Notes: generated by a model from the sequence alone, not told the origin. Numbered from the stretch's first letter, positions 1,483 through 27,729 are shown. The stretch is 64,000 nucleotides of DNA from Escherichia coli (GCF_030013205.1 NZ_CP122649.1), one strand, 5' to 3'. A program made the numbers and translations.

Positions 1483-2779
<1,297 letters not shown>

Positions 2780-2789
2780 CTAATTTTTG

Positions 2790-2845
2790 TTGACACTCTA
2801 TCATTGATAGAGTTATTTTACCACTCCCTATCAGTGATAGAGAAA
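2790..2845. promoter_or_regulatory. tetA/tetR divergent promoter with tetO2 and tetO1 operators
   Basis: TTGACA at about 2790; palindromes ACTCTATCATTGATAGAGT (about 2795-2813) and TCCCTATCAGTGATAGAGA (about 2825-2843) just upstream of tetA ATG. Confidence 0.9.
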
Positions 2846-2851
2846 AGTGAA

Positions 2852-6335: not shown

Positions 6336-7009
6336 TCACCTTTTACCAAAGATGGCCTCAGAGCTTCCTTGAAGCTTTATTATGGCTTCAAGCAGGTCAT
6401 CTTCGTTCAGCGAGCGCTGGGATTTGTTGATGCCTGGAGCATGTCGTCTGCGGGAAGGCTCATCTCCTGAAGGTAGCGACTGGGAGCGATTATTGTCCCT
6501 TTTTTTCTGGACCTGGCGGGCAACATCCAATACATGGCCCAGTCTTTTGTTATCAACAATCGCGACAGGATCGACTTCAGACAATCGGTCGTAGGTGGAG
6601 TAGGGCAGTAGCACGCCATTCAACCGCAGTTCCTTATGTCCGTCAGGATAGTGCCAGACATCAATATACTTGCCGATAGCCCTTCTACTGTATTCGCTGT
6701 CTTCAATCAGATAGAGCATTTTGTCATATTGTACGGTCAGACTTTTTGATACACGACGGGGCTCTCGCCAGGTAAATTCCGCATCCAGGTCATCGTCTAA
6801 TGCCAGCGGCCGATGTGCGTTAAAATCATGCAGGGGGGCTTTGGCGAAGCGCCGGTTATAATCCGCCATGTATTCCTCAGCAAATGCATTCGCGGCTTCT
6901 ATCGTACTGATCCCTTTAAGCCTGAGCTCCTTAACCAGCCGGTCCTGAAGTGTCAGGTGGGCGCGTTCCACACGGCCCTTTGCCTGGCTGGTCTCCGCAC
7001 ATAGCGGGG
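6336..7009 (-). pseudogene. 3' half of an integrase-type (rve, ISNCY/IS1202-like) transposase gene interrupted by the IS26-bounded insertion
   Basis: Reading frame is continuous with 24078-24851 once the insertion and one copy of the 8-bp repeat are removed (...NITPL | CAETSQAKGRVERAHL...). Confidence 0.75.
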
Positions 7010-8095
<1,086 letters not shown>

Positions 8096-8207
8096 TACGC
8101 CTATTTTTATAGGTTAATGTCATGATAATAATGGTTTCTTAGACGTCAGGTGGCACTTTTCGGGGAAATGTGCGCGGAACCCCTATTTGTTTATTTTTCT
8201 AAATACA

Positions 8208-8236
8208 TTCAAATATGTATCCGCTCATGAGACAAT
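8208..8236 (+). promoter_or_regulatory. blaTEM promoter (P3-type -35 TTCAAA / -10 GACAAT)
   Basis: TTCAAA, 17-bp spacer, GACAAT upstream of blaTEM. Confidence 0.7.
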
Positions 8237-8265
8237 AACCCTGGTAAATGCTTCAATAATATTGA

Positions 8266-9138
<873 letters not shown>

Positions 9139-9238
9139 CTGTCAGACCAAGTTTACTCATATATACTTTAGATTGATTTAAAACTTCATTTTTAATTTAA
9201 AAGGATCTAGGTGAAGATCCTTTTTGATAATCTCATGA

Positions 9239-9796
<558 letters not shown>

Positions 9797-9813
9797 GGAC
9801 AAGGAGGTGTGCG

Positions 9814-10176
9814 ATGAGCGCCTACACGGTATCGCAACTGGCCCATAACGCTGGGGTGAGCGTACATATCGTGCGCGACTACCTGGTGCGCGGCTTGTTA
9901 CGGCCGGTGGCCTGCACCACGGGCGGCTACGGCGTGTTCGACGATGCGGCCTTGCAACGGCTGTGCTTCGTGCGCGCGGCCTTCGAGGCGGGTATCGGCC
10001 TGGATGCCCTGGCGCGGCTGTGCCGTGCGCTCGACGCAGCGGACGGCGCACAAGCCGCAGCGCAGCTTGCCGTGCTGCGCCAGTTGGTCGAGCGGCGGCG
10101 CGCGGCGTTGGCCCATCTGGACGCGCAACTGGCCTCCATGCCAGCCGAGCGGGCGCACGAGGAGGCATTGCCGTGA
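9814..10176 (+). CDS. merD: MerD co-regulator
   Basis: [40 protein letters not shown]...; AAGGAGG RBS; the track ORF has an upstream extension. Confidence 0.88.
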
Positions 10177-10409
10177 ACGCCCCTGACAAACTGCCGCCCG
10201 AGACGCGCCAACCCGTTTCCGGCTACCTGTGGGGTGCGCTGGCCGTGTTGACCTGCCCCTGCCATCTGCCGATTCTCGCCGCCGTGCTGGCCGGGACGAC
10301 CGCCGGTGCCTTCCTTGGCGAGCATTGGGGTGTTGCCGCGCTCGCGCTGACCGGCTTGTTCGTTCTGGCCGTAACGCGGCTGCTGCGCGCCTTCCGGGGC
10401 GGATCATGA
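10173..10409 (+). CDS. merE: MerE mercury transporter
   Basis: GTG start overlapping merD stop; 78-aa product [41 protein letters not shown]... Confidence 0.85.
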
Positions 10410-11113
10410 CGAGTTCGCAGCCCGCCGGATGGACGGCGGCCGAGTTGGCGCAGGCGGCGGCGCGCGGACAGCTTGACCTGCATTACCAGCCGCTGGTCGA
10501 TCTGCGCGATCACCGGATCGCTGGCGCGGAAGCGTTGATGCGCTGGCGGCATCCGAGGCTTGGCCTGTTGCCGCCCGGCCAGTTCCTGCCGCTGGCCGAG
10601 TCGTTCGGCCTGATGCCGGAAATAGGCGCGTGGGTGCTGGGCGAGGCCTGTCGCCAGATGCACAAGTGGCAAGGACCGGCATGGCAACCGTTCCGTCTTG
10701 CCATCAATGTGTCCGCCAGCCAGGTTGGGCCAACGTTCGACGACGAGGTAAAGCGGGTGCTGGCCGATATGGCCCTGCCCGCCGAGCTTCTGGAGATCGA
10801 ACTGACCGAATCGGTCGCATTCGGCAATCCAGCCCTGTTCGCCAGTTTCGACGCCTTGCGCGCCATCGGCGTGCGCTTCGCCGCCGACGACTTCGGCACC
10901 GGCTATTCCTGCCTGCAACATCTGAAATGCTGCCCCATCACCACATTGAAAATCGACCAATCCTTTGTCGCCAGGCTCCCGGATGATGCCCGTGACCAAA
11001 CTATCGTGCGGGCGGTGATCCAGCTCGCGCACGGGCTGGGCATGGATGTCATTTTCAGAAGACGACTGCACCAGTTGATTGGGCGTAATGGCTGTTGTGC
11101 AGCCAGCTCCTGA
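10406..11113 (+). CDS. urf2: Tn21 urf2 (EAL-domain protein fragment reading into the integron IRt)
   Basis: [50 protein letters not shown]...; ATG overlaps the merE stop (ATGA). Confidence 0.8.
   Translation: MTSSQPAGWTAAELAQAAARGQLDLHYQPLVDLRDHRIAGAEALMRWRHPRLGLLPPGQFLPLAESFGLMPEIGAWVLGEACRQMHKWQGPAWQPFRLAINVSASQVGPTFDDEVKRVLADMALPAELLEIELTESVAFGNPALFASFDALRAIGVRFAADDFGTGYSCLQHLKCCPITTLKIDQSFVARLPDDARDQTIVRAVIQLAHGLGMDVIFRRRLHQLIGRNGCCAASS
11047..11071. repeat. IRt, 25-bp terminal inverted repeat of the Tn402-type integron tni end
   Basis: TGTCATTTTCAGAAGACGACTGCAC followed by the tniA start. Confidence 0.75.
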
Positions 11114-11187
11114 CAGTTCAATATCAGAAGTGATCTGCACCAATCTCGACTATGCTCAATACTCGTGTGCACCAAAGCGAGGTGAGC

Positions 11188-12439
11188 ATGGCGGCGGACA
11201 CCCCACGGATTCCAGAACAAGGCGTGGCCACTCTGCCTGATGAGGCTTGGGAGCGTGCGCGCCGTCGTGCGGAGATCATCAGTCCGTTGGCGCAGTCGGA
11301 GACGGTCGGGCACGAAGCGGCCGATATGGCGGCTCAGGCGCTGGGCTTGTCTCGGCGCCAGGTATACGTTCTGATCCGGCGTGCCCGGCAAGGCAGCGGC
11401 CTCGTGACGGATCTGGTGCCCGGCCAGTCCGGTGGAGGTAAAGGTAAGGGGCGCTTGCCGGAACCGGTCGAGCGCGTCATCCACGAGCTACTGCAAAAGC
11501 GGTTCCTGACCAAGCAGAAGCGCAGCCTAGCGGCCTTTCACCGCGAAGTCACTCAGGTGTGCAAGGCTCAAAAACTGCGAGTGCCGGCGCGCAATACCGT
11601 GGCCTTACGGATCGCTAGCCTTGACCCGCGCAAGGTCATCCGCCGGCGGGAAGGCCAGGATGCCGCTCGTGACCTACAAGGTGTGGGCGGCGAGCCTCCT
11701 GCCGTGACCGCGCCGCTGGAGCAGGTGCAGATAGACCATACGGTCATCGACCTGATCGTGGTCGATGACCGCGACCGGCAACCTATTGGCCGCCCGTACC
11801 TGACCCTCGCCATCGACGTGTTCACCCGCTGCGTGCTCGGCATGGTCGTCACGCTGGAAGCGCCGTCTGCCGTTTCGGTTGGCCTGTGCCTCGTGCATGT
11901 CGCCTGCGACAAGCGCCCTTGGCTGGAAGGACTGAACGTGGAAATGGATTGGCAGATGAGCGGCAAGCCCTTGCTGCTCTACCTAGACAACGCGGCCGAG
12001 TTCAAGAGCGAGGCCCTGCGCCGGGGTTGCGAGCAGCATGGCATCCGGCTGGACTATCGCCCGCTGGGACAGCCGCACTATGGCGGCATCGTGGAACGGA
12101 TCATCGGCACGGCGATGCAGATGATTCACGACGAACTGCCGGGAACGACCTTCTCCAACCCTGACCAGCGCGGCGACTACGATTCCGAAAACAAGGCCGC
12201 CCTGACGCTGCGCGAGCTAGAGCGCTGGCTCACATTGGCGGTCGGCACCTACCACGGTTCGGTGCACAACGGCCTGCTCCAACCGCCGGCCGCGCGCTGG
12301 GCCGAGGCCGTGGCGCGTGTCGGCGTACCGGCCGTCGTCACACGCGCTACTTCGTTCCTGGTCGATTTTCTGCCGATCCTCCGGCGCACGCTGACCCGCA
12401 CCGGCTTTGTCATCGACCACATCCACTACTACGCCGATG
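11188..12439 (+). pseudogene. tniA: tniA (Tn402/Tn5053-family transposase), 3' end truncated by IS26
   Basis: MAADTPRIPEQGVATLPDEAWERARRRAEIISPLAQ...; frame runs into the IS26 terminal repeat at 12440. Confidence 0.85.
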
Positions 12440-13259
12440 GGCACTGTTGCAAATAGTCGGTGGTGATAAACTTATCATCCCCTTTTGCTGATGGAGCTGC
12501 ACATGAACCCATTCAAAGGCCGGCATTTTCAGCGTGACATCATTCTGTGGGCCGTACGCTGGTACTGCAAATACGGCATCAGTTACCGTGAGCTGCAGGA
12601 GATGCTGGCTGAACGCGGAGTGAATGTCGATCACTCCACGATTTACCGCTGGGTTCAGCGTTATGCGCCTGAAATGGAAAAACGGCTGCGCTGGTACTGG
12701 CGTAACCCTTCCGATCTTTGCCCGTGGCACATGGATGAAACCTACGTGAAGGTCAATGGCCGCTGGGCGTATCTGTACCGGGCCGTCGACAGCCGGGGCC
12801 GCACTGTCGATTTTTATCTCTCCTCCCGTCGTAACAGCAAAGCTGCATACCGGTTTCTGGGTAAAATCCTCAACAACGTGAAGAAGTGGCAGATCCCGCG
12901 ATTCATCAACACGGATAAAGCGCCCGCCTATGGTCGCGCGCTTGCTCTGCTCAAACGCGAAGGCCGGTGCCCGTCTGACGTTGAACACCGACAGATTAAG
13001 TACCGGAACAACGTGATTGAATGCGATCATGGCAAACTGAAACGGATAATCGGCGCCACGCTGGGATTTAAATCCATGAAGACGGCTTACGCCACCATCA
13101 AAGGTATTGAGGTGATGCGTGCACTACGCAAAGGCCAGGCCTCAGCATTTTATTATGGTGATCCCCTGGGCGAAATGCGCCTGGTAAGCAGAGTTTTTGA
13201 AATGTAAGGCCTTTGAATAAGACAAAAGGCTGCCTCATCGCTAACTTTGCAACAGTGCC
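12440..13259 (+). mobile_element. IS26 copy 2 (820 bp, Tnp26 with G at position 184)
   Basis: Terminal repeats GGCACTGTTGCAAA; position-184 codon is GGC, unlike copies 1 and 3. Confidence 0.95.
12503..13207 (+). CDS. tnp26: IS26 transposase Tnp26
   Basis: Same 234-aa product as the other copies except residue 184. Confidence 0.95.
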   Translation: MNPFKGRHFQRDIILWAVRWYCKYGISYRELQEMLAERGVNVDHSTIYRWVQRYAPEMEKRLRWYWRNPSDLCPWHMDETYVKVNGRWAYLYRAVDSRGRTVDFYLSSRRNSKAAYRFLGKILNNVKKWQIPRFINTDKAPAYGRALALLKREGRCPSDVEHRQIKYRNNVIECDHGKLKRIIGATLGFKSMKTAYATIKGIEVMRALRKGQASAFYYGDPLGEMRLVSRVFEM

Positions 13260-13519
13260 CATTTATGAATGTTCCTGTTATGGCTTATGTTCAAGAAAGC
13301 ATTGCCCCTGAAATGATGGGCAAGGTGTTTTCCCTTTTGATGACCGCCATGACTCTTTCTATGCCGATAGGCTTACTTGTTGCAGGTCCGGTTGTTGAGG
13401 TTATAGGTGTTAATACATGGTTTTTCTGGTCTGGTGTTGCGTTGATAGTAAACGCTGTTCTCTGCCGCATTCTGACACGACGCTATGACAAAGTAACAAT
13501 GAAACCGCAAGTGGACTGA
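13260..13519 (+). pseudogene. mef(B): 3' remnant (260 bp) of macrolide efflux MFS gene mef(B), truncated by IS26
   Basis: Hydrophobic MFS C-terminus abutting IS26; matches the known IS26 / mef(B) remnant / sul3 arrangement. Confidence 0.55.
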
Positions 13520-13664
13520 AAAAAGGACCGGGTTGATGATAATTTGTAGTGGTGAGCTTCTGGGAGTACAAAACAAAGTGCTCAAAATTGTCGGGCTCAT
13601 GGCGTTTAACGGTATTAATTTCGCTTATAATAATCTTTCTATAATAGCCTAAAGGAGAATATCT

Positions 13665-14528
13665 ATGATACCTAATAGCGAAAATAAAAGAGTATGGTTT
13701 ATTACCGGAGCAAGCAAGGGGCTTGGCTATGCTTTTACATGCGCCGCCTTGAAAGCCGGGGATAAAGTTGTTGCAGTTGCAAGGACTATCGATAATTTGG
13801 CGAAGCTAGAAGAAACATATCAAGAGAGCTTACTGCCATTAAACCTCGATGTTACAGATAGGGAGGCTGTTTTTTCTACGGTTGAAACAGCAGTTAAACA
13901 TTTCGGTAGGCTTGATATTGTTGTTAATAATGCGGGTATCATGACTATGGGTATGATTGAAGAACTAAACGAATCCGATGCTCGGAAACTAATGGACACA
14001 AACTTTTTTGGAGCTCTTTGGGTTTGTCAGGCAGTGATGCCCTATTTGAGGTCGCAGCGTTCTGGACATATCATACAGATTACAAGCATTGGCGCTATTA
14101 TCTCGGGTCCGATGTCTGGTATTTACAGTGCAAGTAAATTTGCGCTGGAAGGAATGAGTGAAGCCTTAGCAAAAGAAGCGGAACATTTCGGAGTGAAACT
14201 CACTATGGTGGAACCAGGAGGATATTGGACAGATTTATACACTTCGATGAGTTACAGCAATCCATTAGATTCATACGGTACACTGCGCGATGAGCTGGCG
14301 AAACAGTATTCCGAAGATTCGGTCGATAGTGATCCTTCCTTGGCAGCGGAAGCCCTTATGAAATTAGTAGCCAGCAATAATCCGCCTTTGAGGCTTATCC
14401 TTGGCAGCATGGTATACGATTTGGCGATGGATACCTTAAAAGCACGGATGGCTACCTGGGAAGAATGGGAAGCTGTTAGCCGTGCATCAGAAAAGGCTAT
14501 TCCTGCACCGGAGAGATATGGAGTATAA
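13665..14528 (+). CDS. SDR-family short-chain dehydrogenase/reductase
   Basis: 287 aa; glycine-rich NAD(P)-binding motif FITGASKGLG, NNAG, catalytic Y..K (YSASK). Confidence 0.75.
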   Translation: MIPNSENKRVWFITGASKGLGYAFTCAALKAGDKVVAVARTIDNLAKLEETYQESLLPLNLDVTDREAVFSTVETAVKHFGRLDIVVNNAGIMTMGMIEELNESDARKLMDTNFFGALWVCQAVMPYLRSQRSGHIIQITSIGAIISGPMSGIYSASKFALEGMSEALAKEAEHFGVKLTMVEPGGYWTDLYTSMSYSNPLDSYGTLRDELAKQYSEDSVDSDPSLAAEALMKLVASNNPPLRLILGSMVYDLAMDTLKARMATWEEWEAVSRASEKAIPAPERYGV

Positions 14529-14565
14529 TACCAAACATGGTTTTTGAGGCAAGGACGAAACTATC

Positions 14566-14811
14566 ATGAAAATTGAAATTATGGAATATAACCCGGATTG
14601 GACAAAGAATTTTGAAGAAGAGAAAATAAAATTGCTCCATTTTTTCGGTTCTCATGCCGTAGCCATTGAACATATCGGAAGCACGGCGATACCCAATCAA
14701 CGGGCGAAACCGGTTATAGATATATTTATTGGCGTTTCGCCTTTTGCTGAACTACCTTTTATCAGCGCATTTTTAATGCAAAGGAGTATCACCACACTCC
14801 GACAGATATGA
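14566..14811 (+). CDS. GrpB-family-like small ORF (probably a truncated fragment)
   Basis: 81-aa ORF with GrpB-like N-terminus; too short for a full GrpB protein. Confidence 0.4.
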   Translation: MKIEIMEYNPDWTKNFEEEKIKLLHFFGSHAVAIEHIGSTAIPNQRAKPVIDIFIGVSPFAELPFISAFLMQRSITTLRQI

Positions 14812-15279
14812 CAGGCAGATATTTGTTTGCAAAATATACAAATGAAGTTTGGACCCATAATCTTCTTGCTTTGGTGTAGGTATAATACCCAAAAACGAAG
14901 TTTATGCGGAACAGGATAACACCTCGAAATCGGAGTTTATATGGCTTCGTGGGGGAGTTATGTGTTTGAGCTTTGTCGCATTAACGCGAATCAGGGGTTG
15001 ACGGCAGAAATAGACTGGAATTACACTTCTTGGAGTCGGCGTTGCCGGAAAATTCTGATTGGATTAGTTGTTCGGGGTGCGAAAACAGTCGTAGTTCGGG
15101 GAAAAAACCGAATTTTGACCCAAAACCGCGAAAAACTCGAAATGACAGTTCCTATCAGTTTTCATAATGAATTAAAACAAAAAAATTAGGCTGCAAAGAT
15201 AGGGAAAATGTGTCAATTTGCGTAAGTGATAATTAGTCAATTAAGATAAATGCTACTTTTGTAATCAAAGCAAAATGAT

Positions 15280-16071
15280 ATGAGCAAGATTTTTGGAATC
15301 GTAAATATAACCACCGATAGTTTTTCCGATGGAGGACTTTATTTAGATACAGATAAGGCAATTGAGCATGCTCTGCATTTGGTTGAAGATGGAGCAGATG
15401 TGATTGATTTGGGAGCCGCTTCCAGTAATCCTGATACAACTGAAGTGGGCGTTGTGGAAGAAATCAAAAGACTCAAACCTGTCATTAAGGCTTTAAAAGA
15501 AAAAGGCATTTCTATTTCTGTTGATACATTTAAACCTGAGGTTCAGAGTTTTTGCATAGAACAAAAGGTTGATTTTATTAATGATATTCAAGGTTTTCCT
15601 TATCCTGAGATTTATTCAGGCTTGGCAAAGTCAGATTGCAAACTTGTGTTGATGCACTCCGTTCAGCGAATTGGTGCAGCTACTAAAGTTGAAACGAATC
15701 CGGAAGAGGTTTTTACTTCCATGATGGAATTTTTTAAAGAAAGAATTGCTGCTTTAGTTGAGGCTGGTGTAAAGCGTGAACGAATTATTCTTGATCCGGG
15801 TATGGGCTTCTTTTTAGGCTCTAATCCAGAAACATCTATTCTTGTTTTGAAGCGTTTCCCTGAAATTCAAGAAGCTTTTAATTTGCAAGTAATGATTGCA
15901 GTGTCACGGAAATCATTCTTAGGTAAAATAACTGGAACCGATGTGAAATCTCGTTTAGCACCAACTCTTGCAGCAGAAATGTATGCATACAAAAAAGGTG
16001 CAGATTATCTCCGCACCCATGATGTTAAGTCTTTATCAGATGCCTTGAAAATATCCAAAGCCCTAGGTTAG
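15280..16071 (+). CDS. sul3: sulfonamide-resistant dihydropteroate synthase Sul3
   Basis: 263-aa product MSKIFGIVNITTDSFSDGGLYLDTDKAIEHALHLVEDGADVIDLGAASSNPDTTEV...; typical qacH-IS440-sul3 context. Confidence 0.85.
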   Translation: MSKIFGIVNITTDSFSDGGLYLDTDKAIEHALHLVEDGADVIDLGAASSNPDTTEVGVVEEIKRLKPVIKALKEKGISISVDTFKPEVQSFCIEQKVDFINDIQGFPYPEIYSGLAKSDCKLVLMHSVQRIGAATKVETNPEEVFTSMMEFFKERIAALVEAGVKRERIILDPGMGFFLGSNPETSILVLKRFPEIQEAFNLQVMIAVSRKSFLGKITGTDVKSRLAPTLAAEMYAYKKGADYLRTHDVKSLSDALKISKALG

Positions 16072-16317
16072 TTTTATTTTTTTAGCTTTCTAAATGAATA
16101 TGCTATACTTGCTCTGAAGTTGTGTTGGCGTACTTGACTTAGGTCTGGATCTTTCGAACTGTTACTAAGAGGGTAATCATAGCCAAACATAAACTGGAAA
16201 TGTCCTAATTCTAAACCTGTTCCAATACCTACACTATAATCAAGAGGACTTAAACTTCCATCACTTCCAAAAGGTTTTGTGTACTTCTCTTGAGTTTTCG
16301 TAGCTAAATAGTAGTGT

Positions 16318-17004
16318 TTGTTGGTAAATCCAAATAATCCAATATTCAATCTTGCGACCGGGAAAGTCCTCTTGAAAGTACCACAAGTTCGCGGGATGGA
16401 GTTTTATCCCAGCTGCATCGAGAAAGGCATGCGCAGTGAGCGTGCTCTCAAGCTCGCCATCGCCGAAATGTATGTCAAAGGAGTAAGTACCCGCAGGGTC
16501 TCGGATATCGTCGAAATTCTTTGTGGCACCGAAGTCAGCTCGTCCCAGGTCAGCAGGCTGGCAAAGGAGCTCGATGAAGAGATTACGTCTTGGAAGGCGC
16601 AGCCTGTCGGACAGATTCAATACTTGGTACTTGATGCGACCTATGAATCGGTTCGCGTCGGTTCCCATGTGGTCAAGCAGGCGCTTCTAGTGGCTATTGG
16701 CGTTGATTACAGCGGGAATCGGCATATTCTTGACGCCGAAGTCGCGAACAGTGAGGCAGAGGTAAACTGGCGTTCCTTTCTCGAGGGTCTCGTACGACGA
16801 GGGATGCACGGCCTGCGAATGATCACCAGTGATGACCACTCAGGACTGCGCGCGGCAATCGATGCTGTCTTCCCTGGAATTCTGTGGCAACGCTGCCAGT
16901 TTCATCTGCAGCAGAATGCCCACTCCTACGTCACGAAAAAAGATGAGATCCCGCTGATAGCCGCTGATATTCGGAAGGTGTTCAATCGGAATATGTCAAG
17001 ATAG
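16318..17004 (+). pseudogene. IS256-family transposase fragment (IS440-like), N-terminus missing
   Basis: C-terminal DDE region ...ERALKLAIAEMYVKGVSTRRVSD...WQRCQFHLQQNA...; fragment length only. Confidence 0.55.
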
Positions 17005-17250
17005 TTTATGCCAGATTTTTGAGAGGTTTGCATCAAGCAGCCTTCGAAAGAGGACGGCATGACATTGAGACCGGCAAGGCGTCGTAGATACGCACTTTCC
17101 CAGTACGCCACCGTAAGGGGTTTTTCTCTTTGGCAGCAAGAATGGTTTGGTTTCTTTTTTCCTCGGCGCCGTAGGCGTCCGACTAACACCTGAATTAAGC
17201 CGCGCCGCGAAGCGGCGTCGGCTTGAATGAACTGTTAGATGCCAGCCCGA

Positions 17251-17583
17251 TCAATGTGCGCTGACCTTGGATAGCAGATTTAGAACGGCGACGCCACTAA
17301 CGATAAGTCCCATGCCAACGAACGCCCACAAGTCTAGTTTCTGGCCATGGAAGATCCAAGCGATAGCTGCCACAAGTACGATGCCGAGGCCAGCCCAAAC
17401 AGCATAAGCAATGCCGACCGGGATGGACTTGAGTGCGAGAGAGAGGAAATAGAACGCAAGCCCGTAGCCAGCCACAACTACAACAGAAGGAACTAACTTG
17501 GTGAATCCATGGCTGGACTTCAGTGCGGAAGTTGCGACGACCTCACCAAATATTGCAATAGCCAGAAAGAGCCAGTTCTTCAC
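17251..17583 (-). CDS. qacH: SMR-family quaternary ammonium compound efflux protein (qacH/qacL type)
   Basis: 110-aa product from GTG start [24 protein letters not shown]...; four TM segments. Confidence 0.75.
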
Positions 17584-17752
17584 GTGCAATCTCCTCTACG
17601 GTATGAAGGATAAATAGTGGTGGCTATGAGTTGCCAAAAACAGTCTTGCGGCTGTCGATTTTCTGTGAGCATACGCAACGCCAAATCTGGCATCTAACGC
17701 TTGAGTTAAGCCGCGCCGCGAAGCGGCGTCGGCTTGAACGAATTGTTAGACA

Positions 17753-18544
17753 TTATTTGCCGACTACCTTGGTGATCTCGCCTTTCACGTAGTGAACAAA
17801 TTCTTCCAACTGATCTGCGCGGGAGGCCAAGCGATCTTCTTCTTGTCCAAGATAAGCCTGTCTAGCTTCAAGTATGACGGGCTGATACTGGGCCGGCAGG
17901 CGCTCCATTGCCCAGTCGGCAGCGACATCCTTCGGCGCGATTTTGCCGGTTACTGCGCTGTACCAAATGCGGGACAACGTAAGCACTACATTTCGCTCAT
18001 CGCCAGCCCAGTCGGGCGGCGAGTTCCATAGCGTTAAGGTTTCATTTAGCGCCTCAAATAGATCCTGTTCAGGAACCGGATCAAAGAGTTCCTCCGCCGC
18101 TGGACCTACCAAGGCAACGCTATGTTCTCTTGCTTTTGTCAGCAAGATAGCCAGATCAATGTCGATCGTGGCTGGCTCGAAGATACCTGCAAGAATGTCA
18201 TTGCGCTGCCATTCTCCAAATTGCAGTTCGCGCTTAGCTGGATAACGCCACGGAATGATGTCGTCGTGCACAACAATGGTGACTTCTACAGCGCGGAGAA
18301 TCTCGCTCTCTCCAGGGGAAGCCGAAGTTTCCAAAAGGTCGTTGATCAAAGCTCGCCGCGTTGTTTCATCAAGCCTTACGGTCACCGTAACCAGCAAATC
18401 AATATCACTGTGTGGCTTCAGGCCGCCATCCACTGCGGAGCCGTACAAATGTACGGCCAGCAACGTCGGTTCGAGATGGCGCTCGATGACGCCAACTACC
18501 TCTGATAGTTGAGTCGATACTTCGGCGATCACCGCTTCCCTCAT
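17753..18544 (-). CDS. aadA1: aminoglycoside 3''-adenylyltransferase AadA1
   Basis: 263-aa product MREAVIAEVSTQLSEVVGVIERHLEPTLLAVHLYGSAVDGGLKPHSDIDLLV... Confidence 0.9.
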   Translation of the reverse strand: MREAVIAEVSTQLSEVVGVIERHLEPTLLAVHLYGSAVDGGLKPHSDIDLLVTVTVRLDETTRRALINDLLETSASPGESEILRAVEVTIVVHDDIIPWRYPAKRELQFGEWQRNDILAGIFEPATIDIDLAILLTKAREHSVALVGPAAEELFDPVPEQDLFEALNETLTLWNSPPDWAGDERNVVLTLSRIWYSAVTGKIAPKDVAADWAMERLPAQYQPVILEARQAYLGQEEDRLASRADQLEEFVHYVKGEITKVVGK

Positions 18545-18636
18545 GATGTTTAACGCCTGAGCTCAGCCGACCGAAACCGCGTAGCGGTTTTGGGTCGGCT
18601 GCAGCGATTTGTTGGGCGATAGCTTGCCACATTCTC

Positions 18637-19893
18637 TCAACGATTGGGATTTGATGTACTTTCCGCACTTTGTAGCGCGACCACATCATGCTCCCCCTGG
18701 CCGCGAGAGCCCTTCACTCGGGAAACACAAGACAGACCGAGCACGACTGTTGCAAGGGTCAAACAGTACACGACAACCGGCCAAGCCGTGTTGCGCGGCA
18801 ACAGCGAAATGATCAACGTTCCGATGCTTCCTAGCAGTACACCGCCCAAGCAGAAGTAGACTGCCGTGACCGTTCCAGCAACATGGTCGAATCCTCGAAG
18901 AGCGCCATTGGGCGCCACAGATACCGCTGTGGCGACACCAATACCCACTAGCCACATTGGAGCAATAAAGCCTAACACGGACTGCAAAGCCCATATTTCG
19001 GTGATGGCAAGCAATACTGCTCCAGCTATCAGGCATCCCATTCCCATTCGCAAGACACTTGGGCTGCCCCACTTGGGTATCACACGCCCCATAAAACGAG
19101 CCGTAAACACCATGGCAATTGCCACTGTGGCGAACAGCAGGCTGAAGCCAAGCTGAGACACACCTTGCCTGCCCATCATTAGTCCGGGCGCAATGGAGAA
19201 AAAGACGAAGAAGCTACCCATTCCAGCGGCGTAACACAACGTGTACAACCAGAAGTTCAGGCACTTAACGGGGAGTAGCAGCTGCGACCATTGCAAGCCC
19301 GCAACTCGTTGCACCCGGGTTTCAGGCCAGAATCGCCACGCTGCTGCAGATGCAGCGATCATGCCCAAACCTAGAAACGCAAAGATAGCCCGCCACCCAA
19401 GCCACATGTCGACGAGCGCTCCGAGCAATGGGCCTACCGCCGGGACCATGGCCAGCATGGATCCGAGTATGCCGTAAATGACATTACTTTCCTCGCGACC
19501 TGCGTAAATGTCACGTACTGTTGCAAATGTGGAAACAAGGCACGCCGAGGCACCACAAGCCTGAAGAATCCGAAGCCCCAGAAAGACTTCAGCCGATGAC
19601 GTAAGAGCGAGGCCCATTGACGCCACAACGTAGGCGAGGCCACCTCCCAGTAGAACGGGGCGGCGCCCCAGTCGGTCCGATAGCGGTCCAAACAAGAGCT
19701 GACCGGCACCAATCATGACCAAGTACGTTGTCAGCGTAAGCTGAATTGTGCTCGCTGTCGTACCAAGCGCGTTTGGCATAAACGGCACTGCTGGCAAGTA
19801 CATGTCCATGCCGAGTGATGCCAATAAATCGAACGGTGATAACAACAACACCGTGGCGGCAAGGGAGTACCGCCAACTAAAGTTTTTTGAGCT
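18637..19893 (-). CDS. cmlA1: chloramphenicol efflux MFS transporter CmlA1
   Basis: 419-aa product from GTG start (V)SSKNFSWRYSLAATVLLLSPFDLLASLGMDMYLPAVPFM...; the track ORF includes a 16-codon leader. Confidence 0.85.
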   Translation of the reverse strand, partial: SSKNFSWRYSLAATVLLLSPFDLLASLGMDMYLPAVPFMPNALGTTASTIQLTLTTYLVMIGAGQLLFGPLSDRLGRRPVLLGGGLAYVVASMGLALTSSAEVFLGLRILQACGASACLVSTFATVRDIYAGREESNVIYGILGSMLAMVPAVGPLLGALVDMWLGWRAIFAFLGLGMIAASAAAWRFWPETRVQRVAGLQWSQLLLPVKCLNFWLYTLCYAAGMGSFFVFFSIAPGLMMGRQGVSQLGFSLLFATVAIAMVFTARFMGRVIPKWGSPSVLRMGMGCLIAGAVLLAITEIWALQSVLGFIAPMWLVGIGVATAVSVAPNGALRGFDHVAGTVTAVYFCLGGVLLGSIGTLIISLLPRNTAWPVVVYCLTLATVVLGLSCVSRVKGSRGQGEHDVVALQSAESTSNPNR

Positions 19894-20157
19894 CACGAAA
19901 CCATCTCCTTGAACAAAGGATTTGGCGGCGCTCCCGTAGAGCAAAAGGATTCATGAGAACGCCGCAACAACCGAAAAATGAAGGTTGCTGCGGCTTACTT
20001 GTCTGCGTTCTTGGAAGTGCTCATCTGCTGACTATCTCATGATTGAATTTGAATCGTAACAACTTTCAAGCAACTCTGCAAGGAGCCTTATTGTGCGCCC
20101 AACGCCGGAGTTAAGCCGCCGCGCGTAGCGCGGTCGGCTTGAACGAATTGTTAGACA

Positions 20158-20949
20158 TCATTTACCAACTGACTTGATGATCTCGCCTTTCACAAAGCGA
20201 ATAAATTCTTCCAAGTGATCTGCGCGTGAGGCCAAGTGATCTTCTTTTTGTCCCAGATAAGCTTGCTTAGCTTCAAGTAAGACGGGCTGATACTGGGCAG
20301 GTAGGCGTTTTATTGCCCAGTCGGCAGCGACATCCTTCGGCGCGATTTTGCCGGTTATTGCGCTGTACCAAATGCGGGACAACGTAAGCACTACATTTCG
20401 CTCATCGCCGGCCCAGTCGGGCTGCGAGTTCCATAGCTTCAAGGTTTCCCTCAGCGCCTCGAATAGATCCTGTTCAGGAACCGGGTCAAAGAATTCCTCC
20501 GCTGCCGGACCTACCAAGGCAACGCTATGTTCTCTTGCTTTTGTAAGCAGGATAGCTAGATCAATGTCGATCATGGCTGGCTCGAAGATACCCGCAAGAA
20601 TGTCATTGCGCTGCCATTCTCCAAATTGCAGCTCGCGCTTAGCCGGATAACGCCACGGGATGATGTCGTCATGCACGACAAGGGTGACTTCTATAGCGCG
20701 GAGCGTCTCGCTCTCGCCAGGGAAAGCCGAAGCCTCCATAAGGTCATTGAGCAATGCTCGCCGCGTCGTTTCATCAAGCTTTACGGCCACAGTAACCAAC
20801 AAATCAATATCGCTGTATGGCTTCAGGCCGCCATCCACTGCGGAGCCGTACAAATGCACGGCCAGCAACGTTGATTCCAGATGGCGCTCAATGACGCTTA
20901 GCACCTCTGATAGTTGGTTCGAAATTTCGATGGTCACCGCTACCCTCAT
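20158..20949 (-). CDS. aadA2: aminoglycoside 3''-adenylyltransferase AadA2
   Basis: Product MRVAVTIEISNQLSEVLSVIERHLESTLLAVHLYGSAVDGGLKPYSDIDLLV... Confidence 0.9.
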   Translation of the reverse strand: MRVAVTIEISNQLSEVLSVIERHLESTLLAVHLYGSAVDGGLKPYSDIDLLVTVAVKLDETTRRALLNDLMEASAFPGESETLRAIEVTLVVHDDIIPWRYPAKRELQFGEWQRNDILAGIFEPAMIDIDLAILLTKAREHSVALVGPAAEEFFDPVPEQDLFEALRETLKLWNSQPDWAGDERNVVLTLSRIWYSAITGKIAPKDVAADWAIKRLPAQYQPVLLEAKQAYLGQKEDHLASRADHLEEFIRFVKGEIIKSVGK

Positions 20950-21006
20950 GATGTCTAACACCAGAATTAAGCCGCGCCGCGAAGCGGCGTCGGCTTGAAT
21001 GACTTG

Positions 21007-21615
21007 TTAGCGCCCACCTGCGACGCCAACCTCTTGCCACTGATAGTACTGCTTAGTAGCAATGGCCAGCATATCCAGGTCCTCCGGCGTGTCTCCGTAC
21101 GCGTAGATGGTCGGATATGTCGCCAGGTCGTAGCGCTCACGGACCAAGCGAGCCTTCTCCGTCAAGACGCACTGCCGCCCTTCATAGCGGCCCGTTAGGA
21201 TTCCGTCCGACTGTTGCAAGGAAGAACAGATGAGCTCAACGCCGTGCGAGTCGCACCACGGCTCCAAGTAAGCCTCAAGTCCGCCGGAAACAACGACAAC
21301 CTTGTGCCCCTGCGCTTTGTGCCATGCGATGCGCTGCATTGCCTCGCCGCGGAGGGTATTGGGCAGGTAGCTCTGAGCGAAGTCACGACCTTGGGCCTCC
21401 AGGACCGAGGCCGGGATGCCGCTGTAAGCGAAGCGAACGATGACGCGACGGATCAGGGTGCCAGACAAGATCCCAATCTTATACCCAAGCACGAGCGGCG
21501 CCAGAAGCAGTTGTCCCACAAGCAGTCGACGTCGGCTCACGGACCGCCGCACAAAATCCGGCATCGTCTCGCGAGTGGTAATTGTGCCATCGAAGTCAAA
21601 GAGTGCGAGAGACAT
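21007..21615 (-). CDS. psp: HAD-family phosphatase cassette gene (psp)
   Basis: 202 aa, N-terminal DxDGT motif (LFDFDGTIT); sits between estX and aadA2 as in sul3-linked arrays. Confidence 0.7.
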   Translation of the reverse strand: MSLALFDFDGTITTRETMPDFVRRSVSRRRLLVGQLLLAPLVLGYKIGILSGTLIRRVIVRFAYSGIPASVLEAQGRDFAQSYLPNTLRGEAMQRIAWHKAQGHKVVVVSGGLEAYLEPWCDSHGVELICSSLQQSDGILTGRYEGRQCVLTEKARLVRERYDLATYPTIYAYGDTPEDLDMLAIATKQYYQWQEVGVAGGR

Positions 21616-21710
21616 GCGTTGTGGGCGCTAACGCCTTGCTCACCGGAAAATTGCGAGCGCAGCGAGTAATTTTTCCGGTGCAGCAACTTGTTGTACGGTG
21701 CAACCGATAG

Positions 21711-22553
21711 CTATGACGTTTGCCCCTTAATCGCCTGGATAATCCTCGGCCAGTCTTCATGATGCAACTCATGTCCCGTGCCTTCGAGTGTCAGCATTTT
21801 TGAACCACGAATCGCATCTTTCAGTGCCAACCCATGCACATAAGGAAGTACAGGATCCTCCGTGCCGTGAATGATCAAAGTTGGTACAGCTATCTCATTT
21901 AATCTCCCGAGCCATCTCTCGCCACCACCTAAAGTAGTGTGGTTGAATGTTGTCAGGATATTCGGAGTGCGATCAAAATTTAACTCAGCGATGTTTTGTA
22001 TCTTCTCAGCGTCAAAAGCATGCGCAGTACCTGAGTTGATTCGCCACGCTCCGACCTGATACGCGACGACAGCATCTCTATCAGACCAATCCAGCGATTC
22101 CGCCCGTTGGTGATACTCAATGATGGCAGGATCAAAAGCGGGCATATCCGGATCTGCATCTGCAAGCCGTTCTGAAGCAATCAGCGTCAAGCTCTTCACA
22201 CGTTTCGGATACTTGAGAGCTACAAGCTGGGAAAGAAATCCCCCCAAAGACATGCCGACTAAATGAGCAGCTTCCAGACCATAACCATCAATGACGCGAA
22301 CCACATCATCTGCTAATTCTTCAACGGAATATGGAGCCTGACCTGGCTCATAGCTTGTTGATTTCCCGGTATCACGGTGGTCGTACCGGATCACATAGCG
22401 ACCCATTTTGGCAAGTTGGGAACAAAACTCATCAGGCCACCACACCGCAGACGACATTGCCCCCATGATCAGAATAATGGGTTCATGGGCCGGGTCGCCG
22501 AATGATTCGGTATAGAGTGAAATCGCTTTATCAACAACTACCTTTTCTTTCAT
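21711..22553 (-). CDS. estX: alpha/beta-hydrolase cassette gene (estX putative esterase)
   Basis: GxSxG-type nucleophile elbow (GMSLGG); first cassette after attI1; start chosen at MKEKVVV, the track ORF extends further upstream. Confidence 0.7.
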
Positions 22554-22583
22554 ACTTAAATTGCCTTCGAGTTCTACGTACAA

Positions 22584-22650
22584 CTTTGTTTTAGGGCGAC
22601 TGCCCTGCTGCGTAACATCGTTGCTGCTCCATAACATCAAACATCGACCC
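22584..22650 (-). other. attI1 recombination site of the class 1 integron
   Basis: Reverse complement of the 5'-conserved segment ...GCAGTCGCCCTAAAACAAAGTT at the cassette junction. Confidence 0.7.
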
Positions 22651-22719
22651 ACGGCGTAACGCGCTTGCTGCTTGGATGCTCGAGGCATAGACTGTACAAA
22701 AAAACAGTCATAACAAGCC

Positions 22720-23257
22720 ATGAAAACCGCCACTGCGCCGTTACCACCGCTGCGTTCGGTCAAGGTTCTGGACCAGTTGCGTGAGCGCATACGCTACTTG
22801 CATTACAGTTTACGAACCGAACAGGCTTATGTCCACTGGGTTCGTGCCTTCATCCGTTTCCACGGTGTGCGTCACCCGGCAACCTTGGGCAGCAGCGAAG
22901 TCGAGGCATTTCTGTCCTGGCTGGCGAACGAGCGCAAGGTTTCGGTCTCCACGCATCGTCAGGCATTGGCGGCCTTGCTGTTCTTCTACGGCAAGGTGCT
23001 GTGCACGGATCTGCCCTGGCTTCAGGAGATCGGAAGACCTCGGCCGTCGCGGCGCTTGCCGGTGGTGCTGACCCCGGATGAAGTGGTTCGCATCCTCGGT
23101 TTTCTGGAAGGCGAGCATCGTTTGTTCGCCCAGCTTCTGTATGGAACGGGCATGCGGATCAGTGAGGGTTTGCAACTGCGGGTCAAGGATCTGGATTTCG
23201 ATCACGGCACGATCATCGTGCGGGAGGGCAAGGGCTCCAAGGATCGGGCCTTGATGT
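22720..23257 (+). pseudogene. intI1: class 1 integron integrase intI1, truncated after about 179 codons by IS26
   Basis: [53 protein letters not shown]... running into the IS26 terminal repeat at 23258. Confidence 0.9.
22806..22835 (-). promoter_or_regulatory. integron cassette promoter Pc, weak variant (PcW: TGGACA, 17 bp, TAAACT)
   Basis: Reverse complement reads TGGACATAAGCCTGTTCGGTTCGTAAACT inside the intI1 coding region; no TGN extension. Confidence 0.7.
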
Positions 23258-24077
23258 GGCACTGTTGCAAATAGTCGGTGGTGATAAACTTATCATCCCC
23301 TTTTGCTGATGGAGCTGCACATGAACCCATTCAAAGGCCGGCATTTTCAGCGTGACATCATTCTGTGGGCCGTACGCTGGTACTGCAAATACGGCATCAG
23401 TTACCGTGAGCTGCAGGAGATGCTGGCTGAACGCGGAGTGAATGTCGATCACTCCACGATTTACCGCTGGGTTCAGCGTTATGCGCCTGAAATGGAAAAA
23501 CGGCTGCGCTGGTACTGGCGTAACCCTTCCGATCTTTGCCCGTGGCACATGGATGAAACCTACGTGAAGGTCAATGGCCGCTGGGCGTATCTGTACCGGG
23601 CCGTCGACAGCCGGGGCCGCACTGTCGATTTTTATCTCTCCTCCCGTCGTAACAGCAAAGCTGCATACCGGTTTCTGGGTAAAATCCTCAACAACGTGAA
23701 GAAGTGGCAGATCCCACGATTCATCAACACGGATAAAGCGCCCGCCTATGGTCGCGCGCTTGCTCTGCTCAAACGCGAAGGCCGGTGCCCGTCTGACGTT
23801 GAACACCGACAGATTAAGTACCGGAACAACGTGATTGAATGCGATCATGGCAAACTGAAACGGATAATCAACGCCACGCTGGGATTTAAATCCATGAAGA
23901 CGGCTTACGCCACCATCAAAGGTATTGAGGTGATGCGTGCACTACGCAAAGGCCAGGCCTCAGCATTTTATTATGGTGATCCCCTGGGCGAAATGCGCCT
24001 GGTAAGCAGAGTTTTTGAAATGTAAGGCCTTTGAATAAGACAAAAGGCTGCCTCATCGCTAACTTTGCAACAGTGCC
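23258..24077 (+). mobile_element. IS26 copy 3 (820 bp, Tnp26 with N at position 184)
   Basis: Terminal repeats GGCACTGTTGCAAA; followed by TAGCGGGG, identical to the 8 bp preceding copy 1. Confidence 0.95.
23321..24025 (+). CDS. tnp26: IS26 transposase Tnp26
   Basis: 234-aa product; AAC codon at position 184. Confidence 0.95.
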   Translation: MNPFKGRHFQRDIILWAVRWYCKYGISYRELQEMLAERGVNVDHSTIYRWVQRYAPEMEKRLRWYWRNPSDLCPWHMDETYVKVNGRWAYLYRAVDSRGRTVDFYLSSRRNSKAAYRFLGKILNNVKKWQIPRFINTDKAPAYGRALALLKREGRCPSDVEHRQIKYRNNVIECDHGKLKRIINATLGFKSMKTAYATIKGIEVMRALRKGQASAFYYGDPLGEMRLVSRVFEM

Positions 24078-24851
24078 TAGCGGGGTAATGTTGAGGCAGC
24101 GCATGGCTCGGGCAAACTGGGTTTCACCGGGACCAGTGGTAGCGTGCTTATTATTGACTCTGAATACGCTGGCTTTATCGCTGTAAAGGATCATGGGCTT
24201 ACCGTATTTCTCGATATAGCCACGGGTCGCTTCAAAATAGCTAAAGGTGGACTCAGATTTAACAAACAGCAGGTGCATCAGACGACTGGTGGCATCGTCG
24301 ACATATACAAGTGCCGTACAAGGCCGACCCCGGTTTTCAAACCAGTGATGGTCACAGCCGTCAATCTGTATAAGCTCGCCAGTACAGGGCCGCCGGTAAC
24401 GGGGCTGATGAATTTTCGGTGCGCGTTGTCTTCGGGGGATCCAGAGTCCGGCTTTTATCATAAGGCGTCTGATGGTTTCCTTGCCCAGGACCAGACCGTG
24501 AACTTCCTCCAGTTTTTCCCGGGCCAGCGTGGGGCCAAAATCGCGGTAGCGTTCTCGTATGATACTCAGTGCCTGGTCAGTCAGTGATGTGGGCAACAGG
24601 CGGTTGCCAGTGCGACCGCGACTCTGGTTGTTCATACCAAGCGGCCCGGACTGGCGATAACGCTTCAGCAGACGGCTGCAATGACGTGGCGTGATGCCGA
24701 GCATCTCGGCAGCCTGGCCAGGACGCAGGTTACGTTCAACGACATCCTGAAGAATTTTGAGGCGGTTGATTTCTTTCACGGTGAACATCCCGGCGTCATG
24801 TATAGCCATAGAAAACTCCTCATCAGGAAAAGCGAGTCGTTGACTAGGCAT
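24078..24851 (-). pseudogene. 5' half of the integrase-type (ISNCY/IS1202-like) transposase gene split by the IS26-bounded insertion
   Basis: N-terminal HTH plus start of rve core (...ELIQIDGCDHHWFENRGRPCTALVYVDDATSRLMHL...); frame-continuous with 6336-7009; boundaries of the element itself not determined. Confidence 0.75.
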
Positions 24852-26327: not shown

Positions 26328-27729
26328 ATGGTTGATGTACTGGTGATTGGCGGTGGTAATGCCGCGCTATGCGCCGCCTTAACCGCTCGTGAGGCAGGAG
26401 CTTCCGTGCTGCTGTTAGAGGCTGCGCCTAGGGAATGGCGCGGCGGGAATTCCCAACACACGCGCAATTTACGCTGTATGCACGATGCACCACAGGATGT
26501 GCTGGTCGAGAGTTATCCCGAAGAGGAATTCTGGCAGGATCTCTGGCGTGTCACCGAAGGCAATACCAATGAAGCGTTGGCGCGCTTGGTGATTCGAACC
26601 TCTTCCCAGTGTCGTGACTGGATGCGTAAGCATGGGGTTAATTTTCAGCCTCCGCTTTCCGGCGCGCTGCATGTGGCGCGCACCAATGCCTTCTTCATGG
26701 GCGGTGGTAAAGCCCTCGTGAACGCCTATTACCGCAGTGCAGAAAAGCTGGGGGTACAGATTCGCTACAGCACGCCGGTACAGGCGCTTGAATTGCACAA
26801 CGGCAAATTCGTCGCAGCCCTGGCAGGTCACGAACGCATTGAGGCGAAAGCCTGCGTACTCGCCGCCGGCGGGTTTGAATCCAACCGTGAATGGCTACGC
26901 GACGCCTGGGGAGAGAACACTCGTGGCGAATGGCCAGCCGATAATTTCCTTATCCGCGGCACCCGCTTTAATCAGGGCGTCTTGCTCAAATTTATGATCA
27001 ATGCCGGGGCAGACATTATCGGTGATCCGTCTCAGTCCCACTGTGTGGCGATCGACGCACGGGCACCGTTGTACGACGGCGGAATTTGTACCCGCGTGGA
27101 TTGTGTCTCACTGGGTGTGGTAGTTAACCGGGATGCAGAACGCTTTTACGATGAAGGGGAAGATTTTTGGCCGAAACGCTATGCCATCTGGGGACGACTG
27201 GTTGCCCACCAACCGGGGCAGATTGGCTACTCCATTATCGACAGCAAAGCGATCGGTCACTTTATGCCGCCAGTTTTCCCCGGCGCACAGGCCAATACGC
27301 TAAGAGATCTGGCCCGCCAGTTGGGGCTGGATCCCGAACACTTTACCCACACCGTGGAACACTACAATCAGGCCTGTCAGCTGGGTCAGTTTGATCACAC
27401 TAAGCTGGACAACTGCGCGACGCAGGGCCTGACGCCACCGAAAACTCACTGGGCACGGCCTATTGATACCCCCCTACTACGGTTATGCCCTGCGACCAGG
27501 GATCACCTTTACCTATCTCGGACTGAAAGTGAATGAACACGCTGCGGTCCATTTCGCAGGCACGCCCAGCTGTAACCTTTTCGTTGCCGGTGAAATGATG
27601 GCTGGCAACGTACTGGGCAAGGGCTATACCGCCGGGGTCGGCATGTCCATTGGCACCACGTTTGGTCGCATCGCAGGTAAAGAAGCCGCGCAGGCAGCAC
27701 GCAAGGAGGCGCATCATGAAGCAGCTTGA
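26328..27729 (+). pseudogene. tcuA: FAD-dependent tricarballylate dehydrogenase TcuA, reading frame shifted near 27469-27474
   Basis: FAD-binding N-terminus VLVIGGGNAALCAALTA; C-terminal 88 aa continue in the +1 frame (track ORF 27463-27729) after a run of six C. Confidence 0.75.

Follow-up and report, generated by a model that had tools for sequence, protein, structure and literature searches.

What remains of a class 1 integron once an insertion sequence has removed the 3' half of its integrase gene, and did that loss precede the arrival of the element on its present plasmid? These questions are raised by positions 13260-23257 of a 64,000-nucleotide stretch of Escherichia coli DNA (the window), a segment of 9,998 bp between two copies of IS26 that carries six gene cassettes, sul3 and a truncated intI1. 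The window covers the initial 64 kb of plasmid unnamed2 of E. coli ETEC4079 (NZ_CP122645.1; 216,724 bp; from pig faeces in Belgium), which is conjugative, of IncHI type and equipped with trh/htd transfer genes; the window differs from this record only by one C fewer in a C-homopolymer in tcuA (~27468-27475). We assign the element, with a probability of roughly 0.9, as a canonical sul3-associated ("atypical") class 1 integron with an IS26-cut intI1, inside a Tn21-derived backbone.

Identity of the element

The segment and the IS26 copies that bound it contain the following features:

12440-13259, plus strand: IS26, reference sequence, 820 bp, with an IS6-family transposase; left boundary of the segment
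13260-13519, plus strand: mef(B) 3' remnant of 260 bp, positions 324-409 of the 409 in the Mef(B) model
13665-14528, plus strand: orfA, an SDR-family oxidoreductase, part of the sul3 module
14566-14811, plus strand: orfB, a GrpB-family fragment, part of the sul3 module
15280-16071, plus strand: sul3, sulfonamide-resistant dihydropteroate synthase, full-length match to the Sul3 model (613.6 bits); not a cassette
~16348-17004, plus strand: IS440 (tnp440) fragment, positions 31-244 of the 338 in the IS256-family transposase model
17697-17187, minus strand: qacH cassette, gene 17583-17251, attC 17240-17181; full-length match to the QacL model
18553-17698, minus strand: aadA1 cassette, 856 bp, gene 18544-17753, attC 17751-17692
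20102-18554, minus strand: cmlA1 cassette, 1,549 bp, gene 19896-18637, attC 18617-18548
20958-20103, minus strand: aadA2 cassette, 856 bp, gene 20949-20158, attC 20156-20097
21631-20959, minus strand: psp cassette, HAD-IB hydrolase gene 21615-21007, attC 21012-20953
22583-21632, minus strand: estX cassette, gene 22553-21711, attC 21696-21626; EstX model, 659 bits
23258-24077, plus strand: IS26-v1 (Tnp26 G184N), which cuts intI1; right boundary of the segment and outer right end of the 17-kb unit described below

Gene names follow NCBIfam family models and RefSeq or record annotation, together with the AMRFinder calls in the record. The models and the record annotation agree with the order proposed in an earlier note on this DNA (the original prediction), namely estX-psp-aadA2-cmlA1-aadA1-qacH followed by the IS440 fragment, sul3 and the mef(B) remnant. 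The cassette genes lie on the minus strand, and this order is reversed when read along the plus strand. The IS26 copies proposed as boundaries were found exactly where they had been placed.

Many plasmid records from E. coli, Klebsiella and Salmonella, among them pCVM19633_110, match the segment from end to end at 100% identity, and at least 416 plasmid records contain at least 80% of it; it is therefore real, common and already sequenced rather than a product of chance. Beyond the qacH attC there is no 3'-conserved segment (qacEdelta1-sul1), as expected in a sul1-type integron, but the IS440 fragment, of which both termini are missing according to RefSeq, and sul3. The sul3-type signature that replaces the 3'-conserved segment, qacH-IS440-sul3-orfA-orfB-mefB remnant-IS26, is present with every element in order. 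The same structure, including the 260-bp mefB remnant, has been published for the canonical sul3 integrons of pCVM19633_110, pCAZ590 and pCERC3 (estX-psp-aadA2-cmlA1-aadA1-qacH/qacI-tnp440-sul3-orfA-orfB-mefB 260 bp-IS26), which also share the mefB-260 bp::IS26 junction, the PcH1 promoter and the Tn21-type IRt/tniA side. The 260-bp form of mefB (PMC5761274) is known from porcine and poultry isolates, and its junction with IS26 occurs in at least 539 plasmids. Here and below, junctions were counted with 50-mers (25+25 nt), a 600-bp query being uninformative because it merged separate intI1 and IS26 matches.

In contrast to these canonical integrons, which have a complete 1,014-bp intI1, the gene in the window ends at nt 538 against IS26-v1, and the element lacks the repeat IRi and the Tn21 tnp region. 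It fits the canonical type in every defining feature except intact intI1 and IRi. The element is already known, ordinary and no surprise for a specialist; the mildly new points are limited to the 17-kb IS26-v1 unit flanked by a target-site duplication and the recurrent nt-538 breakpoint. Beyond bookkeeping its importance is slight, as a textbook livestock-associated multi-resistance integron on a public, annotated plasmid. The resistances concerned are to streptomycin/spectinomycin, chloramphenicol, sulfonamides, quaternary ammonium compounds and, by present knowledge, 16-membered macrolides via EstX.

The product of the first cassette is named a macrolide esterase in the current NCBIfam release. 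EstX has been characterized biochemically as a 16-membered-macrolide esterase that hydrolyses tylosin, tilmicosin, tildipirosin and leucomycin A5 (PMC11214618). The gene nearest Pc thus confers resistance to veterinary macrolides, a sensible trait for an isolate from a pig. The RGI/CARD layer of PLSDB tags 21711-22688 (estX plus part of attI1) as 'AAC(6')-Ib7' at 100% identity, and AAC(3)-Ib is the label in other records. With NCBIfam identifying the protein as EstX (659 bits), these tags look like an error in the database. The gene named qacL by NCBIfam is the one called qacH or qacI in the integron literature. For aadA2, NCBIfam gives an AadA-family enzyme and AMRFinder in the record gives aadA2 at 100%. 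RefSeq/PGAP marks aadA1 (17706-18544) and aadA2 (20111-20949) as 'frameshifted' pseudogenes. Both open reading frames are full length, match the AadA model end to end and are called by AMRFinder at 100% identity, and the pseudogene marks are probably an annotation artefact.

Truncation of intI1

The integrase gene lies at the right-hand end of the segment:

22720-23257, plus strand: intI1, truncated after 538 nt (179 codons); the open reading frame runs 5 codons into IS26, with its stop at 23274

A tblastn search with full-length IntI1 gave a single match in the window, amino acids 1-179 at 100% identity (22720-23256), and base 23258, the next after the remnant, is the first base of IS26; the proposal that the integrase is cut after about 179 codons is thus exact. 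The NCBIfam match covers IntI1 residues 1-180, and RefSeq describes an IntI1 with its C-terminus missing. Pfam places an N-terminal SAM-like domain at residues 17-99 of intact IntI1 and the catalytic domain at 116-316, of which the remnant keeps the N-terminal domain and only positions 2-69 of the 172 in the catalytic-domain profile (~40%). What remains is unmistakably intI1, yet without most of the catalytic domain. Tyrosine recombinases have their nucleophilic tyrosine and the second Arg/His residues in the C-terminal part, which is missing here. With the catalytic tyrosine lost, self-encoded cassette movement should therefore be impossible. Judged from the residues retained, the IntI1 fragment must be inactive, and on the same grounds the element is a class 1 integron remnant rather than a functional integron.

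No second IntI1-coding DNA was found in the window, on the 216.7-kb plasmid as a whole or on plasmids unnamed1 and unnamed3 of the strain, in a search that left out the chromosome. An intact intI1 elsewhere in cis, named by the original prediction as evidence that would count against it, is accordingly absent from both the window and its plasmid, and the missing part of intI1 is nowhere on the 216.7-kb plasmid either. The truncation could in principle be an assembly artefact, produced by joining the wrong flanks at the six 820-bp IS26 repeats of the plasmid; the many frameshift-type pseudogenes in the strain records and the homopolymer difference between window and record do suggest error-prone long reads. 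We find this barely credible, since 820-bp repeats are easily spanned by long reads, the missing half of intI1 occurs neither on this plasmid nor on two others, the nt-538 junction also occurs in independent records, and the duplication and empty site described below are internally consistent.

IS26-truncated intI1 genes with other breakpoints have been reported in a porcine sul3 integron ('j', 197 bp left), in Tn6242 (657 nt left) and at two more sites. In Tn6242 and integron 'j', as in the window, IS26 removes the 3' part of intI1 while Pc, attI1 and the cassettes stay; the breakpoints (657 and 197 versus 538), arrays and flanks differ. The authors of those studies share the view of the original prediction that the integrase is inactive and that Pc still drives the cassettes. 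Integrons are known to become more stable and less of a fitness burden when they lose a working integrase, and the loss seen here agrees with a published view in which a costly active integrase is shed, while IS26 takes over mobility.

Recombination sites and the state of the array

Loss of the integrase had led the original prediction to regard the array as probably fixed, a claim on which the recombination sites bear directly:

22584-22719, minus strand: attI1 region, crossover between G22584 and TT22583

The attI1 site is canonical, ending in GCCCTAAAACAAAG before TT at 22584/22583 (a boundary also read as CCCTAAAACAAAG before TT), and this stretch is 100% identical to that of pCVM19633_110. 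All six cassettes have RYYYAAC...GTTRRRY-type boundaries, which reproduce the known 856-bp aadA cassettes, and each closes with a complete attC. The bottom strands of these attC sites (6/6) fold into imperfect hairpins with z scores of -2.5 to -5.3 against shuffled sequences, the qacH attC having z = -5.3. With attI1 and every attC intact, the array is therefore still a predicted substrate for IntI1 supplied in trans. The claim of a fixed array holds insofar as there is no integrase in cis, and is overstated in view of the intact attI1 and attC sites; the array would be fixed only while the cell is without another class 1 integrase.

The intact sites also make it possible for an IntI1 encoded elsewhere, on the chromosome or on an incoming plasmid, to be actively reshuffling the array in this strain, so that the truncation would be functionally minor. 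Plasmids with the same nt-538 breakpoint do hold different arrays, which is compatible with exchange after truncation. However, these differences may stem from IS insertions that were independent of one another or from recombination within the 5'-conserved segment, as the Pc alleles and IS types differ as well; moreover, none of the three ETEC4079 plasmids examined encodes IntI1, and an array that is canonical base for base speaks against active reshuffling. Ongoing exchange in this strain is thus unlikely.

Pc promoter and expression of the array

The Pc promoter sits inside the retained part of intI1:

22835-22807, minus strand: Pc, variant PcH1, with -35 TGGACA (22835-22830), a 17-nt spacer and -10 TAAACT (22812-22807)

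The spacer ends in ...GGTTCG (TCG) and has no TGN motif. Re-reading of the sequence and a consensus promoter scan, which found the same site independently and without TG, bear out the hexamers TGGACA/TAAACT and the lack of TGN in the original prediction. The description of this promoter as the weak variant does not hold, as the published nomenclature makes clear:

PcW: -35 TGGACA, -10 TAAGCT
PcH1: -35 TGGACA, -10 TAAACT
PcS: -35 TTGACA, -10 TAAACT

Jové et al. reported the strength order PcW < PcH1 < PcW-P2 < PcW-TGN-10 < PcS, the last four being 4.5-, 7-, 15- and 25-fold stronger than PcW. By its hexamers the present promoter is intermediate-low and not the weakest. The IntI1 translation carries R32 and H39, the residues that go with PcW or PcH1. 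PcH1 is usual with this array, having been found in most E. coli isolates of one survey and in 22/22 Proteus isolates of another.

Taken exactly as proposed, the original prediction of a weak PcW promoter and an array frozen by integrase truncation can draw on the -35 hexamer, which is of PcW/PcH1 type, on the lack of TGN and of an active P2, on the absence of IntI1 in cis, and on the loose grouping of PcH1 with 'weak' promoters in several papers. The -10 hexamer refutes the name PcW, PcH1 is 4.5 times stronger than PcW, and with intact attI1 and attC sites the array is frozen only while the cell contains no IntI1. That combination is consequently improbable, and the promoter of this element should be recorded as PcH1.

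The second promoter, P2, consists of TTGTTA (22716-22711), a 14-nt spacer and TACAGT (22696-22691), which is the inactive spacing, and the LexA box CTGTACAAAAAAACAG at 22692-22707 is undisturbed (for the context of both, see PMC2791841). The LexA-box-controlled intI1 promoter region (22692-23321) reads through the 538-nt remnant into tnp26, which has the same orientation and starts at 23321. It is a speculation that SOS-dependent read-through from the intI1 promoter into tnp26(G184N) could couple IS26 activity to the SOS response.

An internal promoter in the cmlA1 leader region, as suggested in the original prediction, is borne out by the structure of this cassette. Its 5' region of 206 nt contains a leader open reading frame of nine codons (MSTSKNADK; ATG at 20024, stop at 19995), directly followed by a 12-bp hairpin (RNA fold, z = -2.4), and a second RNA structure pairs with the cmlA1 Shine-Dalgarno sequence AAGGAG (19909-19904). 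The leader, hairpins and Shine-Dalgarno pairing match the published description of cmlA, whose own promoter lies ~145 bp before the start codon and whose translation is subject to chloramphenicol-inducible attenuation. We place PcmlA at TTGAAA (20069-20064), 16 nt and TTCAAT (20047-20042), which fits the published distance. The review that describes cmlA also lists promoters in the qacE and qacI cassettes, and the idea that distal cassettes rely on internal promoters is reasonable and already in the literature. By analogy with published identical sequences, PcH1 would drive the cassettes beginning with estX, presumably less and less effectively with distance; the cmlA1 cassette would supply its own promoter and a chloramphenicol-inducible translational attenuator, and the qac cassette probably has its own promoter. 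Not itself a cassette and encoded on the strand opposite the cassettes, sul3 cannot be transcribed from Pc.

The 17,068-bp IS26-v1-bounded unit

The integron lies inside a larger block, 7010-24077 (17,068 bp), that has identical, inverted copies of IS26-v1 at its ends. Its remaining features are:

7002-7009, no strand: left copy of the 8-bp target-site duplication, TAGCGGGG, read directly
7010-7829, minus strand: IS26-v1 (Tnp26 G184N), exact reverse complement of the copy at 23258-24077; outer left end of the unit
7830-11046, plus strand: Tn2 remnant with partial resolvase and blaTEM-1, joined to a Tn21-type mer remnant (RefSeq)
11047-11071, plus strand: IRt, 25 bp, the outer repeat of Tn402-type class 1 integrons; a perfect match to TGTCATTTTCAGAAGACGACTGCAC, with 0 expected by chance
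11188-12439, plus strand: tniA, cut by IS26; a transposase without its C-terminus in RefSeq
24078-24085, no strand: right copy of the target-site duplication, TAGCGGGG, in direct orientation to the left copy

When the outer flanks are joined with a single TAGCGGGG, 399/399 nucleotides are contiguous in IncHI1 plasmids (pHCM1, pO111_1 and others), which represent the empty site. This site lies in an ISNCY-family transposase gene, whose halves are annotated by RefSeq at 6336-7004 and 24006-24809. The block thus has the terminal IS copies, direct target-site duplication and identifiable empty site that define a compound transposon. We propose that all 17,068 bp of the block entered the ISNCY-family transposase gene of an IncHI1-type conjugative plasmid together, in a single insertion that would have duplicated 8 bp. 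The duplication and the empty site argue that the unit entered the plasmid with intI1 already truncated, and the absence of the other half of intI1 from the plasmid agrees with truncation before arrival.

Truncation in place would instead require a resident IS26 on the IncHI1 plasmid to have deleted the Tn21 tnp genes and IRi along with the 3' part of intI1. Deletions next to IS26 are common, and NZ_CP122645.1 has six copies of the element. However, the right flank of the IS26 copy that cuts intI1 is the second copy of the 8-bp duplication, its partner lies 17 kb away next to an IS26-v1 of the same sequence in inverted orientation, and joining the flanks perfectly restores the gene that is uninterrupted in related plasmids. 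A deletion in place would leave no such signature and is very unlikely. A single intramolecular IS26 inversion as the origin of the 17-kb unit was also considered; it predicts the reverse complement of TAGCGGGG at the inner end of the IS26 copy at 23258, where the sequence is CTTGATGT, and is ruled out.

Prior truncation and arrival as a unit remain our preferred account, and by this account IS26-v1 at nt 538 of intI1 probably removed the 3' half of the gene together with IRi. IRi, which we take to differ from the IRt pattern at 3 positions, is expected to be lost with truncation by IS26-v1, and this is consistent with a search of the window for the IRt pattern with up to 3 mismatches, which gave no match beyond 11047-11071 (no separate IRi pattern was searched). 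The backbone extends to the left of the segment, beyond the reference IS26, as far as IRt at 11047, a point missed in the original prediction. The junction of tniA with IS26 is common (at least 1,359 plasmids), and the adjoining Tn21-type mer remnant comprises a merA fragment, merD, merE and urf2 (RefSeq).

IS26-v1 differs from the copy at 12440 by G>A at nt 459 and GG>AA at nt 613-614, the latter giving G184N; this variant, with its three nucleotide differences and G184N, has been described as having enhanced activity (PMC9412624). The G184N Tnp26 protein (WP_001067858.1) is also encoded on the 77-kb IncFII plasmid unnamed1 of the strain, and IS26-v1 is hence present on two replicons. The copies that flank the 9,998-bp segment are different variants in direct orientation. 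The resistance segment thus has the layout of an IS26 pseudo-compound transposon, with a directly oriented IS26 pair (12440-13259 and 23258-24077) and no target-site duplication at that level. It departs from the typical case in that the two copies differ (reference and v1) and no translocatable unit or second copy was observed; PLSDB contains no second copy of the IS26-flanked segment unit. The 17-kb unit resembles a classical IS-bounded compound transposon in its identical inverted ends, 8-bp direct duplication and empty site, and differs from it in being a single known instance whose transposition as a unit is inferred rather than observed. The resistance genes would now be mobile through IS26 and the conjugative plasmid. 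The mefB-260 bp and intI1-538 junctions and the TAGCGGGG duplication provide precise epidemiological markers for this block.

Four points weigh against this overall account. The intact 17-kb unit was found only in this plasmid, and its movement as a unit is read solely from the duplication and the empty site. The absence of another intI1 covers three plasmids, the chromosome of the strain lying outside the search. The PcmlA hexamers are our own assignment and were not reported by the consensus scan. Finally, the use of the promoters, the polarity and any PcmlA read-through (into aadA1 and qacH) that we assume for this plasmid derive from other integrons.

Recurrence of the nt-538 breakpoint

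In the window the IRL end of IS26 adjoins nt 538 of intI1. This junction, in the same orientation, was found in 4/72,556 plasmids and, among 5,426 complete E. coli genomes, in the present one alone. Two of the other three plasmids were examined and have different arrays, PcW and reference IS26. The same breakpoint with IS26 in the opposite orientation, its IRR end adjoining intI1, occurs in ~13 plasmids, including pS441 and Acinetobacter plasmids, and one further plasmid has a different IS6-family element at this position. The Pc alleles among integrons with the nt-538 breakpoint are PcW, PcH1 and PcW-TGN-10. Truncation at nt 538 is thus rare yet recurrent, with different IS orientations.

The closest comparison is the Salmonella Typhimurium IncHI2 plasmid pS441 (NZ_CP061123.1), which shares with the window the leading cassettes estX-psp-aadA2-cmlA1, PcH1, the intI1 break at nt 538 and an IS26 with the same three G184N-variant differences as the right-hand copy. 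Unlike in the window, IS26 is reversed in pS441, with its IRR end against intI1, and the other half of intI1 is retained ~16 kb away and inverted, which is the geometry of an intramolecular IS26 inversion. The orientation and the retained, inverted half indicate that the truncation in pS441 was a separate event from that in the window.

For both IS26 orientations there are reciprocal half-junctions that share the 8-bp target CTTGATGT (intI1 nt 531-538, window 23250-23257). Whether an IS copy transposes replicatively or recombines with another IS, it retains one donor flank, and this is the basis of the argument from orientation: a flank stays with the same IS end through later IS26 events, and the two orientations therefore represent independent strikes on this 8-bp target. 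A single ancestral insertion as the source of both orientations was rejected on the same basis, as the junction type cannot flip. It is conceivable but rather improbable that intI1 nt 531-538 is a preferred target of IS26-family elements and the recurrence more than a coincidence. An anchored variable-gap scan of 100,044 species-representative genomes found no IS26 ends at intI1 nt 523-553 and hence gave no background distribution, and we found no claim of an IS26 hot spot in intI1 in the literature.

In pCVM19633_110 (NC_011092.1, 37846-37895), an IS26 end adjoins intI1 sequence that begins at nt 531, reciprocal to the break in the window; this half-junction lies ~14 kb from the intact canonical sul3 integron of that plasmid.

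Neighboring genes

To the left of the IS26-bounded unit, a Tn10-type tetR(B)-tet(B) module is followed by IS1B (2147-4054); with this module beside the unit, the whole region forms a composite resistance island. Between IS1B and the interrupted ISNCY element, at 5267-6067, is a gene of the Shedu immune-nuclease family (anti-phage defence), which adjoins the resistance block. Far from the integron, RefSeq calls tcuA frameshifted at the homopolymer site near 27,470.

A second IS26-rich resistance island is found outside the window, at 182.9-196.3 kb of the plasmid, with floR, strAB and msr(E)-mph(E). It contains three further IS26 copies, each 1 nt off the reference. The same plasmid also carries lnu(G) at ~214 kb.

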